IMG/VR virus record: IMGVR_UViG_3300031555_010338
Reading direction: 5' to 3' (one strand)
Source: a virus
Lineage: Duplodnaviria; Caudoviricetes
DNA: 64,000 nucleotides
A program made the position numbers and the translations under genes. The notes below the pieces were generated by a model that was given only the letters and a program-made list of their open reading frames with translations, had not been told where the DNA came from and searched no databases. This document shows, piece after piece, positions 25,907 through 52,426 of this stretch. The number at the start of each line of letters is the position of its first letter. Within the stretch, counting starts at the first letter, position 1.

Positions 25907-27313
25907 GTGAAGACATTGTATTCTGCATTTGTTACCAGAATTAAAAACCTGAGAAAACATACGAATGCAGATCGTCTGATGTGTGGCGAGTGTTTTGGCA
26001 ATACGGTTATCGTTGGCCTGGACACTCAGCCAGACGAGCTTGGTGTTTACTTCCCCGTAGACGGCAAGCTTGGTTTGGAGTTTGCGCAGAAGAATGATCT
26101 GCTCCGCCGCAAGGATGAAAATGGCAAACCTGCTGGCGGTTATCTCGATCCTGAGAAGAGAAACATTAAGGCTCTGAAGCTCCGTGGAGAAAAGAGCGAC
26201 GGCCTGTTTATGCCTCTTGTTTGTCTGGCAGATTACACCGATATTGCCAGTTTGAAAGAGGGTGACACCATTACAGTGTTGAATGGTGTAACGATTTGTG
26301 AGAAATATATCCCCCGCGCAAGTAGTAGGGGGGGGTGTCATTTTGATGGTAATCGCACTCGCAAGCGCAAAGATCCTGTGTCTCCCCTGTTCATGGAACA
26401 TGCAGACACGGAACAGCTTGCCTACAATCTTACATCCTTCCGTGCTGGCGACCAAATCGAGGTCACTTTGAAGATGCACGGCACTTCTCAGAGAACCGGC
26501 TATCTTCCCGTTCTGAGTGGATATAAGCGCACCATTATGGATAAGCTGCGCAAGCGTTCTGGCACACCGATTTATGATTGGGGCTATGTCTCCGGTACTC
26601 GTCGTGTAGTTCTGGACGATTATGAAGGCGGCTACTATGGGAGCAACGCCTTCCGTGAGCAGCACAGCAAGATCTTTGAAGGCAAACTTCATAAGGGCGA
26701 GACGGTATATTATGAGGTTGTTGGTTTTACTCAGGACGGTACGCCTATCATGGCTTCTTGTGATAACAAGAAAGTAGGCGATAAGGAATTTACTAAACAA
26801 TACGGAGATGTTACGACATTCTCTTATGGCTGCAAGCCTGGACATTTGGGCGGACTTATCAAAGATAAGGAAATTGTGGATAACGAAGCTGTTGTGTATC
26901 CGCAGTCTGACATCTATGTGTACCGTATGACCATGACCAATGAGGACGGCGATGTAGTTGAGTACACGCCCGATTTTATGCGTTACCGTTGTGAGCAGAT
27001 GGGCGTTAAGTGTGTTCCCGTATTTTACAAGGGCTACATTCCCGAATACTTCATCCTGCCCGATGATGTTGGAAGTCCCGCCGCAATCGATGCTGGTGCA
27101 TATGTAAAGAAGCTGGCTGAGGATTTCTACGACGGCGCTGATCCTGTTGGTAAATCCCATATCCGTGAGGGTGTTGTAGTTCGGATCATCAACCGTCCTA
27201 AGTTCACCGCTTACAAGCATAAGAACTTTGCGTTTAAGGTGCTGGAGGGCATTATCAAGGATGTTGCTACCGCACCTGACATGGAAGAGGCTCAGGAACA
27301 GGAGGCTGCATAA
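25907..27313 (+). CDS. RNA ligase (DRB0094/Rnl2-like, N-terminal OB-fold)
   Basis: HTNADRL, LRGEKSDG, motif I KMHGTS, motif IV REGVV, motif V KHK. Confidence 0.8.
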   Translation: MKTLYSAFVTRIKNLRKHTNADRLMCGECFGNTVIVGLDTQPDELGVYFPVDGKLGLEFAQKNDLLRRKDENGKPAGGYLDPEKRNIKALKLRGEKSDGLFMPLVCLADYTDIASLKEGDTITVLNGVTICEKYIPRASSRGGCHFDGNRTRKRKDPVSPLFMEHADTEQLAYNLTSFRAGDQIEVTLKMHGTSQRTGYLPVLSGYKRTIMDKLRKRSGTPIYDWGYVSGTRRVVLDDYEGGYYGSNAFREQHSKIFEGKLHKGETVYYEVVGFTQDGTPIMASCDNKKVGDKEFTKQYGDVTTFSYGCKPGHLGGLIKDKEIVDNEAVVYPQSDIYVYRMTMTNEDGDVVEYTPDFMRYRCEQMGVKCVPVFYKGYIPEYFILPDDVGSPAAIDAGAYVKKLAEDFYDGADPVGKSHIREGVVVRIINRPKFTAYKHKNFAFKVLEGIIKDVATAPDMEEAQEQEAA

Positions 27314-31136: not shown

Positions 31137-31824
31137 ATGTTTGAGGTAAACAAGATTTTTGTAGGGGATTGTATTTCAGGTATGCAATCGTGGGGGGGGG
31201 CAAGCCGACCTTGTGCTTACAGACCCTCCTTATAACATCAGCGTTGATAACAATTTCCATACGATGCGTGGTCGCCACGGAATTGATTTTGGAGATTGGG
31301 ATAAAGGGTTCGACTTGACGGGTTGGATACCAGAGGCGGTATCCAGGCTTAAACCAGGCGGAAATATTATCATTTTTAATGCTTGGCGAAATATGGGTGA
31401 AATTGCTACTGCTCTGGAAGGGTGTGGATGCCTTGTAAAAGAGATGATCCAGTGGCAAAAGACCAATCCAATGCCAAGAAACAGAGATCGCCTATATGTA
31501 ACTGCTTGTGAATTTGCAATTTGGGCGACTAAAGGCAAAGGATGGACGTTCAACCGACAAAGAGAAACCTACGAAAACACAATTTTCAAATATCCAATCG
31601 TGTCTGCAAAACGGCGCATTCATACGACGCAAAAACCGATTGAACTTATTCGTGATTTAATTCTCATCCATAGTAACCCGAACGATATAGTTCTCGATCC
31701 GTTTATGGGCAGTGGTACAACTGCTATTGCCGCCATTGAAACGGGACGAAAGTTTGTTGGGTTCGAGATTGACGAAAATTATTACTCTGCTGCGTGTCAG
31801 CGAATTACAGAAAGAATTGCTTAA
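31137..31824 (+). pseudogene. Beta-class N4/N6 DNA methyltransferase, frameshifted at G9 (31192-31200)
   Basis: MFEVNKIFVGDC in one frame; DLVLTDPPY...HTTQKP...DPFMGSGT in the next; G8 restores the frame. Confidence 0.85.
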
Positions 31825-31841: not shown

Positions 31842-32582
31842 ATGAAGCATATTGCAAGTGTCAGCTTTGGCAAGGATAGCCTTGCTATGCTGTTATGTCT
31901 TATCGAAAAGAAATACCCGCTCGATATTGTCCTCTTCTATAACACTGGTATGGAGTTTGAGGCAATTTACCGAATCCGAGACAAGATTGTTCCTGTGCTT
32001 GAAGAACTTGGAATCGATTATGTTGAGCTTCATCCATCAGAACCCTTTCTATACACGATGCTTGAGCGTCCTGTTAATAGCATGAGGGGGGGGCAGAAGT
32101 ACGGATACGGCTGGTGCGGTGGTCTTTGCCGTTGGGGAACGTCAGAAAAACTCAGAGCAATAAAGAAGTTTAAGCGCTCACTGAATGATGTGGTCATTGA
32201 TTATGTCGGCATCGCTTCTGACGAACAATCCCGTTTTGAAAAGGCAAAAAGCGACGGCAAAAGATTACCACTGGTTGAGTGGGATATGACAGAAAAGGAT
32301 TGTTTGGAGTATTGCCATGCAAAAGGTTGGTATTGGTACGAAACAACAGAATCCGGAACTGTTGAACTGTATTCAATTTTAGATCGTGTTTCTTGTTGGT
32401 GTTGTTGTAACAAGAACCTAAAAGAACTGAAAAACATCTATCTACATCTCCCAGAATATTGGGAGAAGTTAAAAGCGCTTCAATCTCAAATGAGTAGGCC
32501 AATCAAAGGTTTTTACAAAAATCATCCAAAGGGAATTTTTGAGCTTGAAGATAGATTTTCTAAGGAGATAAACAAATCATGA
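31842..32582 (+). CDS. PAPS-reductase-family protein (in-frame G8 at 32086-32093)
   Basis: SFGKDS, TGMEF, WCGGLCRWG, RVSCWCC. Confidence 0.8.
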   Translation: MKHIASVSFGKDSLAMLLCLIEKKYPLDIVLFYNTGMEFEAIYRIRDKIVPVLEELGIDYVELHPSEPFLYTMLERPVNSMRGGQKYGYGWCGGLCRWGTSEKLRAIKKFKRSLNDVVIDYVGIASDEQSRFEKAKSDGKRLPLVEWDMTEKDCLEYCHAKGWYWYETTESGTVELYSILDRVSCWCCCNKNLKELKNIYLHLPEYWEKLKALQSQMSRPIKGFYKNHPKGIFELEDRFSKEINKS

Positions 32583-33466
32583 AATACAATACTGCCCTTT
32601 TCTGCGAGTTCGACAAGTACGCCGCAGAAAGCTATTGCGCAGTTCATGGTGTGGATCATTCTCTGAACATTGGCGATATCACCCAGGCCGACGAAAAAGC
32701 TGTGCCTGACTTCAATGTAATGTTCGGGGGTAGTCCGTGCCAGGACTTCTCAATCGCCGGCAAACAGGGGGGGGTAGCGTGGAAATGTAAATCCTGCGAC
32801 CATACATATAACCCTCTGGAAGCCCACTATACCGTTCGCTACCAGTGTCCGAAGTGCGGATCAACCGACATTGATAAGACCCGCTCTTCCCTTCTTGTAG
32901 AGTGGCTGCGCTTTCTCCGTGAGAAGAAGCCTCGCTTTGCAATCTATGAAAATGTCAAAAACATTGTCGGTACTCGTTTCAAAGAAACCTTTGATTTGTT
33001 TGTAAAGGAACTTGAAGAGTACGGCTACAATGTGTACTGGCAGGTTTTGAATGCAAAGAATTATGGCATTCCTCAGAACAGAGAGCGTGTCTACTGCGTT
33101 ATCATTCGTAAAGATTTGGATAACGGTCAATTCAAATTCCCAGAACCAATTCCTCTGAAATCATCTTTGAGTGATCTGCTGGAGGACGAAGTAGATGAGC
33201 ATTACTATCTCAGCGACGAGAAAGTAGCTCAGATGATCGCCCCCCCCCACTCCGTAATATCAGCAACACCGTCCGATCAAGCGGACGCGGATCAACTGAC
33301 AGACACACATGGGACTTGCTGCCATGCGAAGAGAGGCGCAAAGCTGAGTAACAAAGGGAGCCATTTTGATGGCTACAGCGATGTCGCCTTAACCTTATTG
33401 GCACGAGACTATAAAGGTTTTGGAAATCAGCAAATGACAGGAGTTATTGAGTCGAATGAACGATAA
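32579..33466 (+). CDS. C5-cytosine methyltransferase subunit alpha (motifs II-VIII + TRD)
   Basis: CEFDKYA, GDI, GGSPCQDFS, YENV, PQNRERV; lacks motif I; CxxC...CxxC insert. Confidence 0.9.
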   Translation: MKYNTALFCEFDKYAAESYCAVHGVDHSLNIGDITQADEKAVPDFNVMFGGSPCQDFSIAGKQGGVAWKCKSCDHTYNPLEAHYTVRYQCPKCGSTDIDKTRSSLLVEWLRFLREKKPRFAIYENVKNIVGTRFKETFDLFVKELEEYGYNVYWQVLNAKNYGIPQNRERVYCVIIRKDLDNGQFKFPEPIPLKSSLSDLLEDEVDEHYYLSDEKVAQMIAPPHSVISATPSDQADADQLTDTHGTCCHAKRGAKLSNKGSHFDGYSDVALTLLARDYKGFGNQQMTGVIESNER

Positions 33467-34334
33467 ATTAAACCCTGACAGTCTGTTTACCCCCCCCGTA
33501 TCATATTGCATAGACGCAAATTACTATAAGGGGACAACAATAGAACAGTACGTCAAAAAGAAGCGGAGGCAACTTGTAGTGGATACTTTTGATAAACATA
33601 AAACAAAGAACGATATTACGATGCTTGGCGGGTTGCAAGCTCATCAACATCCGTGCAGTGATGGGATTTGCCCCTGTGTGAATAGTGCGGCTGGAATGGG
33701 TGGTGGACAAACACCTATTGCAATTCGACCTGGATTTCGTGTGAGAAAACTTACACCAAAAGAGTGTTGGAGACTTATGGGATTTGAAGACCAAGATTTT
33801 GAGAATGCCAAGAACGGCATGAATCAGAATATCTACAATGGAAATGATCGTTCCAGCTCTCAGCTCTATAAGCAGGCTGGCAACAGTATTGTTGTCGATG
33901 TGCTGCTTCACATCATGGAAAACCTGTACGAAGCTATGCCGTATTTGTTTGAAGACATCCAAATCGGCTCTTTCTTCAGCGGTATTGGCGCATTTGAAAA
34001 GGCTCTTGATCGACTTGAGCCTAACAATACTCACTCAGCCGAATTAGCGACGGACAACCCTGAGTTGCATCAACTTGGTTATATCAACGGAAATAATGGT
34101 GTAGCCAATCGCGTATATGATAACAACCTGGCTCGTACCTTAGCTGCCGAGGCGGGGGGGGGCGGAGCTAAGACCGGCTGGTATCGAATTACCCCCCCCC
34201 GCAATCCAGTGATTCTGGATGTAAAGCAGCAACATCGGGAGGGGAAGCCGAGAATGTACCAGACAGGTATTGTCCCGACCCTTGCAGCACGGGATTACAA
34301 AGACCCGTTGCGAGTTGTTGTGAAGAAAGGGTAA
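33456..34334 (+). CDS. C5-cytosine methyltransferase subunit beta (TRDs, motifs IX-X-I, TRDs)
   Basis: RKLTPKECWRLMGF, YKQAGNSIVV, then FFSGIGAFE. Confidence 0.85.
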   Translation: MNDKLNPDSLFTPPVSYCIDANYYKGTTIEQYVKKKRRQLVVDTFDKHKTKNDITMLGGLQAHQHPCSDGICPCVNSAAGMGGGQTPIAIRPGFRVRKLTPKECWRLMGFEDQDFENAKNGMNQNIYNGNDRSSSQLYKQAGNSIVVDVLLHIMENLYEAMPYLFEDIQIGSFFSGIGAFEKALDRLEPNNTHSAELATDNPELHQLGYINGNNGVANRVYDNNLARTLAAEAGGGGAKTGWYRITPPRNPVILDVKQQHREGKPRMYQTGIVPTLAARDYKDPLRVVVKKG

Positions 34335-34570
34335 TTTTAGATGATACTATGGGCTTTGAACAAACGCCTCGCATTTACAAAGAGTTTTGTCCAAGTTTGA
34401 GAGCGAGTAGAAATGGTTTGAAAACTGTTACTGCTTCCAATCTTGGGATTATTGATCCGCAAGGCCGCACAAAGAAAAAGCTCTATATCAAAAAGATCTG
34501 TCCAACGCTCCGCGCACAAATCCACGGAAATCCGCCATGTGCGGTGTATGAGGTAAAACAAAATGAGTGA
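34202..34570 (+). other. Alternative TRD cassette, reachable by +1 C at 34192-34200 (or translated from ATG 34349)
   Basis: Frame open from the C tract to 34570; encodes CPSLRASRNGLK and CPTLRAQIHGNPP. Confidence 0.65.
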
Positions 34571-34797
34571 GACGATCAGAATCAAACAGGCCACAAAGCA
34601 AGGCTTCATTGAGTGTGTCGTGGGGGGGGGCTGTCGATCTCTCCTACCCAAACTCTAAAACCCGTCGTGGCCGTGTGCAAGAAGGCGGAATGATTTGCCC
34701 GACGATTACAGCCCAGACAACGGGAATTTGTATCGTAGAAAAAGCAAGGAATTCCACCAAACCTATTGACAAATCCGAAAAACCTGATATACTATAA
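34563..34797 (+). pseudogene. Stand-alone TRD gene, frameshifted at G9 (34622-34630)
   Basis: MSETIRIKQATKQGFIEC joins AVDLSYPNSKTRRGRV...CPTITA when the tract is G8. Confidence 0.75.
34766..34793 (+). promoter_or_regulatory. Sigma-A promoter for the replication module
   Basis: TTGACA-16-TATACT with extended -10 TG. Confidence 0.65.
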
Positions 34798-43673: not shown

Positions 43674-44306
43674 ATGAGTCGTAAACGCAATTCTGCCGGC
43701 AAGATTGTCACTGTCATATGTGGCGCATGTCTGGCAACACTTCTGATGGGTTCCATGTGCTACCCCGCCGCGAGATCGTGTGATATGGACACCCCCCCCG
43801 AAAATACAGCTACTACTTCTTATTTGGTACATACTTCTGAGCCGGTCATGTTGGTACTGCCAGAGGTTGTGGAACCAATCGAAACAACTAAGGTTGAACC
43901 AGTTGTTCCAGAGGAAGATCCTCCCGCAATTCCCTATACAGAAGAAGACCTTGATTTGTTTGCAAGACTTCTTACCGCTGAGATGGGTGGCTCTTGGATT
44001 CCCGATGAGATTCAGCTTTATGTTGGTAGTGTTGTCATTAACCGTATGGGACATGAACTGTATCCCGATACGCTGTACGATGTTATTTATCAACCTGGTC
44101 AGTATTCTCCTACTTGGAGCGGCGCAATCAACAACACGCCAGATGAACGTACCATTGAAAATGCACGGCAGCTTCTTGAGGAAGGGAGTATCCTCCCCGC
44201 AAATGTGGTATTCCAGGCTAACTTTAAGCAGGGCGACGGCGTTTACTATGAATACTACGACGAAATTCTTGGAACAACAACTTATTTTTGCTATCTATCG
44301 AATTAA
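43674..44306 (+). CDS. SleB/CwlJ-like cell wall hydrolase
   Basis: N-terminal TM; LFARLLTAE, VGSVVINR, YPDTLYDVIYQPGQY. Confidence 0.85.
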   Translation: MSRKRNSAGKIVTVICGACLATLLMGSMCYPAARSCDMDTPPENTATTSYLVHTSEPVMLVLPEVVEPIETTKVEPVVPEEDPPAIPYTEEDLDLFARLLTAEMGGSWIPDEIQLYVGSVVINRMGHELYPDTLYDVIYQPGQYSPTWSGAINNTPDERTIENARQLLEEGSILPANVVFQANFKQGDGVYYEYYDEILGTTTYFCYLSN

Positions 44307-44330
44307 CTAAACAATTTCGGAGGTTATGCA

Positions 44331-51021: not shown

Positions 51022-51389
51022 TCGTTGCTGGCGGTAGGGATTTCAACAACTACAACGGCCTTGCCGCCAGTCTCGATTATTTGTTGAAGAACATCAATGA
51101 CGAAATTCAGATTGTTTGCGGCATGGCTCGTGGCGCAGATAGGCTTGGGGAGCGCTATGCAAAAGAGCGCGGTTACAAGGTAATCTATTTTCCAGCCGAT
51201 TGGGATATAGACGGACGCTCAGCCGGTTTCAAGCGAAATGTGAAGATGGCAGAGTACGCAGATGCTCTGGTTGCGTTTTGGGATGGAAAGTCTTCTGGTA
51301 CTAAGCACATGATTGAAACGGCGCAAGGCAAAGGCTTAGATGTCCGTGTGAAGAGATACCAAATGAAACGGAGGCAACCCGGTGAATAG
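51009..51389 (+). CDS. SLOG/YspA (DUF2493)-like protein
   Basis: VIVAGGRDF, GMARGAD, AGFKRN, FWDGKSSGT. Confidence 0.85.
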   Translation: MFRVIVAGGRDFNNYNGLAASLDYLLKNINDEIQIVCGMARGADRLGERYAKERGYKVIYFPADWDIDGRSAGFKRNVKMAEYADALVAFWDGKSSGTKHMIETAQGKGLDVRVKRYQMKRRQPGE

Positions 51390-51981
51390 ATATATCAGCG
51401 ATTTACATTTTGGTCATGCAAATGTCATCAAGTTTGACGACAGGCCGTTCAGCAATATTGCCGCAATGGAAGATGCGTTGATCCAGAACTGGAATAGCGT
51501 GACCGATCCAAATGACACCGTTTATATCCTTGGCGATTTCTGCTGGGGAAAAGAAGACGAATGGAAGCGGATTTTACCGCAGCTCAAAGGAAATAAGGTG
51601 TTGATTCGCGGCAATCATGACATCAAAGAAATGTCCTCTGGGCTTAAAAAGATGTTTCAGGATGTTAAGGAGTACAAGGAAATTACGGATACTGGAAGAC
51701 ATGTTATCATGTGTCACTATCCTATCCTTCTCTATAAAGCCTCTTATAATCCTGATTGCTATATGCTTTGTGGTCATGTACATGTCACAAGAGAAAATGA
51801 CTTTTTGAATCAGTGGAGAGACGAGCTGAGACGCACACGATCTTCTCGTACTCATAACTGTGGCAATATATTCAATGTTGGCTGCATGATGCCATATATG
51901 GGATATACACCTCGAACCCTTGATGAGATTATTGACGGTGTTTCTCATAGCATTTATAAACAACACAAAGGAGTGAAACGC
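51382..51981 (+). CDS. Calcineurin-like metallophosphoesterase (no stop; runs in frame into the next gene)
   Basis: SDLHFGH, LGDF, RGNHD, CHYP, GHVH. Confidence 0.8.
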
Positions 51982-52426
51982 ATGAACCTTAATGTCATGT
52001 TTTCATCGAAGTCTATGGAGTGGGCAACTCCGCAAGATTTCTTTGACCGACTGAATGATGAGTTTCACTTCACCCTCGACCCCTGCGCTGACGACCATAA
52101 CCATAAGTGTGACACATATTACACTGAGAAGGAAAATGGACTTGAGCAGTGCTGGGGGGGGGCAGACCGTATTCTGCAATCCACCATACGGAAAAGCAAT
52201 AAAAGATTGGGTGAAGAAATGCTCAGACGAATCCAAAAAGCCTGGTACAACCGTTGTCATGTTAATACCGGCTCGAACGGATACAAGCTACTTCCACGAC
52301 TATATCTATCAAAAGCAAGATGTTGAGGTTAGGTTTATTCGTGGCAGATTGAAGTTTGGAGACGGAAAGAACTCTGCTCCGTTCCCAAGTATGGTGGTCA
52401 TTTTTCATTCACCAAAGGAGTTTTAA
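51982..52426 (+). pseudogene. Phage N6-adenine methyltransferase (Dam-like), frameshifted at G9 (52154-52162)
   Basis: EWATPQ...FTLDPCA in one frame; VFCNPPY...LIPARTDT...GRLKF in the next; G8 restores the frame. Confidence 0.85.

Follow-up and report, generated by a model that had tools for sequence, protein, structure and literature searches.

How might the length of a short run of G or C decide which DNA sites a phage methylates? The question is raised by a locus in the Caudoviricetes record IMGVR_UViG_3300031555_010338 (Duplodnaviria; IMG/VR), a whole phage genome of 143,788 bp on a single contig. Its final 64 kb are the window analyzed here. Between positions 32579 and 34797 of this window lies a locus for a DNA cytosine-5 (C5) methyltransferase that is studded with homopolymers of eight or nine G or C residues. 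The original prediction, drawn from the letters of the window, held that these homopolymers do more than turn the enzyme ON or OFF, and that their length selects among alternative target recognition domains (TRDs) encoded in overlapping reading frames. The coordinates, frames, peptides and stops on which it was built were all reproduced by translation. We put the probability at roughly 65% that the slippery runs of this phage multispecific C5-methyltransferase choose, by their length, which recognition modules are translated, so that 'phasotypes' of the phage vary in the sites they methylate.

The locus would encode an anti-restriction C5-methyltransferase of the multispecific family known from Bacillus phages. 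Its first open reading frame (ORF), ORF A (32579–33466, on the + strand like every feature of the locus), encodes the N-side methyltransferase chain, which is 295 amino acids (aa) long with the runs at their present lengths (G8/C9). This chain carries motif II (FCEFDKYA), motif IV (GGSPCQDFS), a zinc-ribbon insertion, motif VI (YENVKN), motif VIII (QNRERV) and a tail of recognition modules, and it has no motif I. It scores 170 bits against PF00145 (cut-off 22), and the catalytic motifs of that family are present as IV (the PCQ cysteine), VI (ENV) and VIII (QxRxR). By tblastn, ORF A is 35% identical to residues 27–273 of the phi3T methyltransferase (E 7e-50) with the zinc ribbon in common, and the identity of the catalytic half to this multispecific enzyme is 35–40% overall; the kinship with the phi3T multispecific enzymes proposed at the outset is thus real. 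The equivalent of ORF A in a relative aligns with residues 35–211 of M.HhaI. ORF B (33456–34334, 292 aa) is the C-side chain and matches the C-terminal part of PF00145 (E 1e-10). It overlaps ORF A by 11–20 nucleotides (nt), given an alternative TTG start at 33447, and runs from modules T4 and Tc through motifs IX, X and I, in that order, to modules T2 and T1. The three motifs occupy 33738–33998, with IX (RVRKLTPKECWRLMGF) from 33738, X (QAGNSIVVDV) at 33873–33902 and I (FFSGIGAFE) at 33972–33998. Motifs IX–X match those of phi3T at E 3e-15, and motif I matches the N-terminal motif I of the phi3T enzyme.

The recognition modules were identified against a comparison set of 80 related loci from IMG/VR. 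Twenty-two of these are intact, each a single ORF of 476–733 aa without long tracts, in which two to seven short modules stand in line between motifs VIII and IX and sometimes also after motif I (L042, L055). We used these in-line modules as a dictionary. The window contains nine module types, every one of which matches in-line modules of the intact relatives, and they are spread over three reading frames in the two main ORFs and two small ones. The mechanism proposed here places about nine short modules on the tails of the two chains and in a pair of small ORFs behind them, with neighboring modules in different frames, set apart by G or C runs of 8–9.

Module T3 (33250–33351, frame 0, LRNISNTVRSSGRGSTDRHTWDLL..., with its own stop) directly follows the first C tract. 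Its peptide, ISNTVRSSGRGSTDRHTWDLL, is kept in about 50 related loci (E down to 2e-12), and in the intact relative L062 it is in frame between motifs VIII and IX, directly after VIII. Module T7 (33341–33466, frame 1, LSNKGSHFDGYSDVALTLLARDYKGFGNQQMTGVIE) matches in-line modules such as those of L048 (E 4e-11) and L077 (E 5e-9). In ORF B, T4 and Tc (33498–33725, frame 2) read VSYCIDANYYKGTTIEQYVKKKRRQLVV and MLGGLQAHQHPCSDGICPCVNSAAGMGGGQTPIAI, and T4 matches in-line modules of the intact L070 (E 2e-47) and L072 (E 1e-13), adjoining sequence included. T2 (34074–34184, frame 2, ANRVYDNNLARTLAAEAGGGGAKTGWY) comes after motif I, and T2-type modules are found in frame behind motif I in the intact L055. 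T1 (34200–34334, frame 2, ...YQTGIVPTLAARDYKDPLRVV) matches in-line modules of L052 (E 5e-9), L055 and L072. T8a and T8b (34337–34570, frame 1; RIYKEFCPSLRASRNGLK, then IDPQGR...CPTLRAQIHGNPP) can also be called as a 73-aa ORF from the ATG at 34349; T8b is kept in 16 loci (E down to 3e-18), and a T8a-type module immediately precedes motif IX in L041 and follows motif I in the intact L042. Finally, T5 (34563–34797) has a small ORF to itself, which begins at an ATG overlapping the T8 stop and is interrupted by a G9 tract. One half lies in frame 2 and the other in frame 0, and both match T5 as it stands in line in intact relatives (E 1e-17). The only route to a T5 product would be a small protein of its own; T8 could be made in the same way or through a frameshift fusion.

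The alternative-frame peptides had been proposed to be genuine modules, and this is borne out, for T3 by its presence in about 50 loci, its in-frame position in L062 and purifying selection on its own frame, described below, and for T8a, T8b and T5 by the matches given above. The proposal that the TRDs themselves lie in overlapping frames holds for the ORFs, which do overlap, and fails for the modules, which are serial: no stretch of DNA is used as a module in two frames, and the upstream module serves as an out-of-frame spacer for the one behind it. None of the window's modules has a significant match to the variable region of phi3T, so assigning targets by likeness to the phi3T recognition domains was rejected and we propose no target sequence for any module.

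Six tracts divide the locus, and we computed the product of every tract length by translation. Five had been listed originally; the sixth, a G8 tract at 32767–32774 directly after motif IV, had been missed. This tract would act as an ON/OFF master switch of the catalytic chain, since G7 or G9 leaves only 65–70 aa, and relatives hold G7, G8 or G9 at the equivalent position with the ORF broken accordingly. The first selector, switch 1, is the C9 tract at 33240–33248. At C9 the ribosome would pass through T3 out of frame, reading it in frame 1 as a polar linker of 31 aa, and continue into T7, so that T3 is silent and the chain of 295 aa ends in ...LTLLARDYKGFGNQQMTGVIESNER. At C10 or C7, T3 is read to its stop at 33349–33351 and the chain of 256–257 aa ends in ...APPPLRNISNTVRSSGRGSTDRHTWDLLPCEERRKAE. 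At C8 or C11 a stop follows after two codons (APPTP at C8), giving 225–226 aa and no module.

The remaining tracts act on ORF B and the small ORFs behind it. The C8 tract at 33490–33497, 11 codons from the start of ORF B, marks the boundary ahead of T4, and a one-base change in either direction reduces ORF B to 18–24 aa. The G9 tract at 34154–34162 lies inside T2 and encodes its GGGG; a one-base change there costs ORF B everything after motif I and, when combined with a change in the C tract 30 nt downstream, causes T2 to be skipped. Homologous G tracts in relatives range from G7 to G9. That C tract is switch 2 (C9, 34192–34200). At C9 it gives T1 and a stop, so that ORF B is 292 aa long and ends in ...PTLAARDYKDPLRVVVKKG; at C10 or C7 it leads through T1 out of frame, via CPSLRASRNGL, into T8a/T8b (CPTLRAQIHGNPP) as far as 34570, giving 370–371 aa; and at C8 it leads to an immediate stop. 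The last tract (G9, 34622–34630) lies within T5, which is OFF at G9 (31 aa) and ON at G8 (77 aa), exactly as first described, and the computed products likewise agree with the earlier view that C8 33490 and G9 34154 gate further modules.

If these tracts behave as contingency loci, replication slippage would change a run by one base at high frequency and make each of them a heritable, reversible switch. G8 32767 and C8 33490 would be on/off controls of the two chains. C9 33240 and C9 34192 would be three-way selectors, offering one module, that same module as an out-of-frame linker to a second, or a truncation, while G9 34154 and G9 34622 would govern the gain or loss of single modules. A phage population would then comprise many phasotypes that methylate different sets of sites, which may be a way to hedge against hosts that differ in their restriction systems.

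The clustering of these tracts is beyond chance, because run lengths in the genome are bimodal and so many long runs fall within so short a stretch. Genome-wide, G/C runs measure 1–5 bases, then none of 6–7 is found, and then there are 15 of 8–9. Thirteen of the 15 are in the window and ten lie between 26.3 and 34.7 kb, within an 8.5 kb DNA-modification island. The C5 locus itself, 2.2 kb or 1.5% of the genome, holds six of the 15, for which we calculate a binomial probability of about 6e-8 by our own arithmetic. Runs of A8/T8 are also in excess genome-wide (13, vs three of A7/T7); four of them lie in the window (5883, 14428, 58551, 60484), mostly at ORF boundaries.

Comparison of near-identical phages points to slippage of the DNA. 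In five collinear contig pairs, all 18 indels fall in G/C runs of at least seven bases, and 18 of the 35 tracts compared differ in length, while the approximately 54 kb outside the tracts hold 611 substitutions and not one indel. The closest example is the pair L016 and L033 (99.8% identical; 22 substitutions in 10.9 kb), in which all five methyltransferase tracts differ and two tracts outside the methyltransferase are unchanged. The window's own lineage behaves differently. Seven contigs from seven samples, 99.9–100% identical to the window, have the same lengths in 22 of 23 tract observations, the sole exception being a G10 at the T5 tract of L082 (otherwise 99.9% identical). This agreement across seven independent assemblies indicates that assembly noise is low. 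Invariant tracts had been singled out as evidence that would speak against length selection, and here the outcome is divided, with polymorphism among relatives and near-constancy within the lineage.

The layout around switch 1 is conserved well beyond near-identical phages. Tracts at gene positions +188 and +661 are kept in place in relatives that are only 71–74% identical in DNA, and in all 32 clade-1 sequences the tract at +661 is followed by T3 with its stop in one frame, by a +1 frame open into T7, which sits one frame after T3, and by a +2 frame closed within 2–5 codons. Whether both frames stay open in homologues had been raised at the outset; in these 32 sequences they do. The switch-1 tract itself is C7, C8, C9 or C10 in clade-1 relatives. 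Among 37 clade-1 contigs the product is T7 in 22 (19 at C9, two at C7 in a shifted context and one without a tract), a truncation in 13, and T3 in two (L014 at C10 and L030 at C7). All three predicted states therefore occur among relatives, and the genetic logic, by which tract length selects a module rather than simply ON or OFF, is borne out. A second clade, 55–65% identical, makes the same choice between T3, T7 and truncation through a G run of 5–7 inside T3: G6 gives the whole of T3 and a stop, G7 gives half of T3 followed by T7, and two contigs are truncated. For the T5 tract, relatives that have it are evenly divided between G8 (in frame, 10 loci) and G7/G9 (out of frame, 10 loci).

Selection on the silent module was assessed with a 63-nt core of T3 in 19 distinct sequences of 74% mean DNA identity. 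Mean amino-acid identity is 79.5% in T3's own frame vs 51.5% and 44.9% in the other two, and the differing codons divide into synonymous and nonsynonymous as 1199:737 in its own frame vs 350:1660 and 168:1883. Because the high identity and the synonymous excess are confined to that frame, purifying selection acts on T3, even though most genomes leave it silent. At switch 2, the frame that serves as linker remains open across T1 with P = 0.018 under synonymous recoding that holds the T1 protein fixed. An open linker frame was also considered as evidence of selection at switch 1, and was rejected there.

Several observations weigh against a length-selected repertoire. Chance alone would leave the linker frame open at switch 1 (P = 0.76), and the T3-ON genotype is rare (2/37 clade-1 contigs). 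The T1-to-T8 arrangement of switch 2 was seen in no other contig scanned: the switch-2 alternative frame found no relatives in the viral contigs, in a scan from which near-identical records may have been left out, and a protein-guided scan of metagenome contigs with ORF B found none. Searching metagenome contigs for the paired G9/C9 tracts by their exact flanks gave no matches, nor did blastn of the locus against GenBank phages. A similar C tract does occur at the switch-2 junction in L010, L023 and L025. A number of modules are placed behind motif I or in small ORFs of their own, and we know of no characterized C5-methyltransferase with a recognition domain in either position. Some modules may not be used by frameshifting at all, because relatives without tracts have stand-alone module ORFs as well; in L075 (6440–6900), which is intact, permuted and free of tracts, separate small ORFs for TRD-like modules come after the gene. 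The main caveat is that the majority phasotype of the window's own lineage is stable across samples.

A rival view, which we regard as unlikely, sees in the tracts only ON/OFF switches or sites of decay: the enzyme is either made or it is not, and modules that lie out of frame or downstream would be relics or a silent cassette bank for recombination. Truncated relatives are common (13/37 at switch 1), G7 or G9 at +188 breaks the catalytic half, and stand-alone module ORFs are shared with tract-less relatives. The loci are also mosaic, with module orders that differ, indicating recombination, and poly(G) control of a C5-methyltransferase by ON/OFF switching is established in Mycoplasma agalactiae (PMC9465063). 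Relics, however, would not retain a synonymous excess in their own frame, nor would their three-frame layout be expected to persist unchanged across 32 sequences and to recur in a second clade that uses another tract. The frame across T1 is open against odds of 0.018, and the tracts are positioned at module boundaries rather than at random.

A less probable alternative is that the isoforms arise during expression, through RNA polymerase slippage or ribosomal frameshifting that yields all of them from one genotype, and that differences in DNA length are incidental. The progeny of every virion would then receive a mix of module combinations. Constant consensus lengths in seven identical contigs from different samples would fit, as would a defined product in each frame at both selector sites, and a constant low level of recoding would explain why T3 is selected though the T3-ON genotype is rare. 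On the other hand, near-identical phages differ by no indels other than those in tract length, and about half of the compared tracts are affected, which is the signature of slippage in DNA. Transcriptional slippage, moreover, is best documented on A/T runs, whereas these tracts are G or C. No frameshift-stimulating structure was seen, although no search aimed at one was made.

The notion that homopolymer errors of sequencing or assembly have broken what is really one continuous ORF is very improbable: homopolymers are indeed error-prone and A8 and T8 runs are over-represented too, but identical lengths in seven independent assemblies led us to reject an artefact, ORF A stops 24 nt before the next tract so that no tract change fuses it to ORF B, the T5 ATG overlaps the T8 stop with no tract between them, and the same architecture recurs in dozens of contigs from many samples.

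Selection of modules by tract length would operate here on an unusual enzyme, and although the original prediction had the genetic logic largely right, it overlooked both the split and the circular permutation of this enzyme. The canonical order from I to X on one chain is not found. ORF A holds motifs II–VIII, and motif IX (RKLTPKECWRLMGF), motif X and the S-adenosylmethionine (AdoMet)-binding motif I (FxGxG) are all in ORF B, with motif I after X. The order II...VIII, modules, IX, X, I is shared by 20 of the 22 intact relatives, whereas L062 (506–1933) has the canonical order, with the same FSGIGAFEKAL segment at its N-terminus. Judged from these motif orders, the permutation is an evolutionary event within this family; only motif I has been relocated, and the new N-terminus falls between motifs I and II.

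The break between ORF A and ORF B falls between modules T7 and T4. A tract change that would join the two ORFs was considered and rejected, as two stops (33464 and 33473) precede the C8 tract. Motifs IX, X and I are absent from both products of the first switch, and both products consequently need ORF B. In structure prediction, the cores of ORF A and ORF B formed a complex with a score of 0.90 vs 0.01 for the best control, passing a mark that 58 of 80 solved complexes, but also 2 of 110 mismatched pairs, had attained, although such a pass shows likeness to a fold rather than binding and may stem from solved single-chain C5-methyltransferases, which share this fold. The partner chain is predicted with a pLDDT (predicted local distance difference test) of at least 92, the runs agree in at least 97% of contacts, and the strand of motif I sits between the motif II and motif IV strands of ORF A, as in single-chain enzymes. 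The two chains may assemble into one enzyme.

A bolder proposal is that the locus is a frame-coded combinatorial library, in which six independent slippage 'bits' would yield dozens of heritable phasotypes from 2.2 kb without recombination, and in which modules would act after motif I or in trans (T5 and T8, at approximately 75 aa), places from which no module of a C5-methyltransferase is known to work. We hold this only tentatively, and think it doubtful. If true, it would imply a new mode of docking of target domains, and that the whole modification island is run as a phage 'phasome', in which two further N6-methyltransferases would be OFF at G9 and ON at G8.

The island occupies about 26–35 kb of the window, in which essentially all genes are on the + strand. 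Besides the C5 locus, it contains RNA-ligase-like, kinase/HD, two PAPS-reductase-like and two N6-adenine methyltransferase genes. For the primase-helicase of the phage, the counterpart in an uncultivated 176 kb phage from human faeces is 50% identical, and no close cultured phage was found with this protein.

Long tracts occur in several other genes of the phage. An N6/N4 adenine methyltransferase gene (PF01555, 30996–31824) is split by a G9 tract at 31192–31200; G8 would give 275 aa, and G9 gives 79 aa plus an ORF of 203 aa from a GTG at 31213. A fusion of a Dam-like methyltransferase (PF05869) and a calcineurin-like phosphoesterase (51382–52426) is out of frame at G9 52154–52162, and at G8 would yield 347 aa with the whole Dam domain. 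The G9 tracts in three methylase genes (31192, 34622 and 52154) are thus each one G too long. Tracts of eight G/C bases are in frame at 26328, 28492, 30285, 32086 and 9160, in the RNA-ligase-like gene, the gene before kinase/HD, both PAPS-reductase-like genes and a 151-aa ORF; at the counterpart of 30285, relatives differ in tract length (G8 in L006 vs G9 in L051). A C8 tract at 43792–43799 lies 49 codons into a cell-wall hydrolase gene (PF07486, 43644–44307). Downstream of it, the hydrolase frame and a second frame (GTG 43780 to 44310) are both open for 168 codons, with P = 0.003 under synonymous recoding, and the second-frame peptide is Leu-rich and hydrophobic. From its sequence, this second frame could be a tract-gated overlapping gene, for example for a membrane protein.

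Restriction-modification is the commonest bacterial defense, and phage-borne methyltransferases are a main counter-measure. If module choice by tract length operates as we propose, single-base slippage would re-deal the sequences that a phage protects and maintain standing variation against many restriction systems, while sparing the phage the cost of constant production of every module. Large gut phages whose host ranges are broad or shift would then be easier to explain. The locus offers enzymology a natural C5-methyltransferase that is permuted between motifs I and II, a split enzyme, and modules that are possibly active from unusual positions; such enzymes would be useful for engineering methyltransferases of programmable specificity. 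It also carries a warning for metagenomics, in that a methylase that looks like a frameshifted 'pseudogene' in a phage contig may be a live switch.

How, then, does this locus compare with known systems? The closest are the Bacillus-phage enzymes M.Phi3TI and M.SPRI, direct homologues with the same zinc ribbon after motif IV and near-identical motifs I, IX and X. They too carry short recognition modules in series, and are phage-borne orphan methylases with a presumed anti-restriction role. However, each is a single chain with motifs I–X in order and modules that all lie between VIII and IX and are co-expressed, whereas here motif I follows X, the ORFs are split, modules also occur after motif I or in small ORFs, and their frames lie behind hypermutable runs. 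In terms of the split, the nearest parallel is M.AquI, a natural two-subunit C5-methyltransferase whose overlapping ORFs are broken in the variable region (PMC5944983). The present locus likewise has two overlapping ORFs with a break in the variable region, between T7 and T4, but M.AquI is unpermuted, with one recognition domain and without tracts. Natural and artificial C5 enzymes cut in the variable region complement well (PMC5944983).

Permuted C5 enzymes are also known. A 2018 survey counted 27 natural examples in REBASE, all permuted in the variable region, and engineered permutants of ten topological types were active (PMC5944983). As in the window's enzyme, motif X precedes motif I in M.BssHII, M.Alw26I, M2.Eco31I, M.Esp3I and M2.BsaI. 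Type H (the M.BssHII group) is defined by an N-terminus in the variable region with IX–X before I–VIII, an arrangement that differs from the one found here.

Homopolymers that alter methylation have been described in bacteria. In the NgoAV Type I system of Neisseria gonorrhoeae, loss of one G from a polyG tract in hsdS1 fuses hsdS1 and hsdS2 and changes the target from GCAN8TGC to GCAN7STCA (PMC9577141). As predicted here, homopolymer length thereby alters specificity beyond ON/OFF. NgoAV, however, is a bacterial Type I adenine methylase with a single tract and two states in its specificity subunit, unlike the phage C5 enzyme with its six tracts, three-way selectors and modules skipped out of frame. 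In M. agalactiae, a CpG C5-methyltransferase has a mid-gene poly(G) of 6–11 that varies within and between strains and truncates the product (PMC9465063). Such mycoplasma enzymes are chromosomal and have one tract, ON/OFF control only and one specificity.

In phages, hypermutable homopolymers in genes are reported to be used as bet-hedging (Sorensen et al., 2021), and a preprint describes polymerase-slippage contingency loci in receptor-binding and other phage genes and mentions a polyG tract in a Bordetella phage methylase gene (bioRxiv 10.1101/2025.10.21.683753). As far as these sources extend, the phage homopolymer loci reported so far turn receptor-binding or other genes on and off, and none is a choice among methyltransferase recognition modules; our full-text literature searches turned up no description of recognition modules selected by tract length in a phage C5-methyltransferase. 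The present locus shares with contingency loci its six coding runs of 8–9 bases, at which a one-base change alters the product, and tract lengths that are polymorphic among near-identical relatives. Its modules, if indeed selected by tract length, would combine the features of a contingency locus with those of a multispecific methyltransferase.

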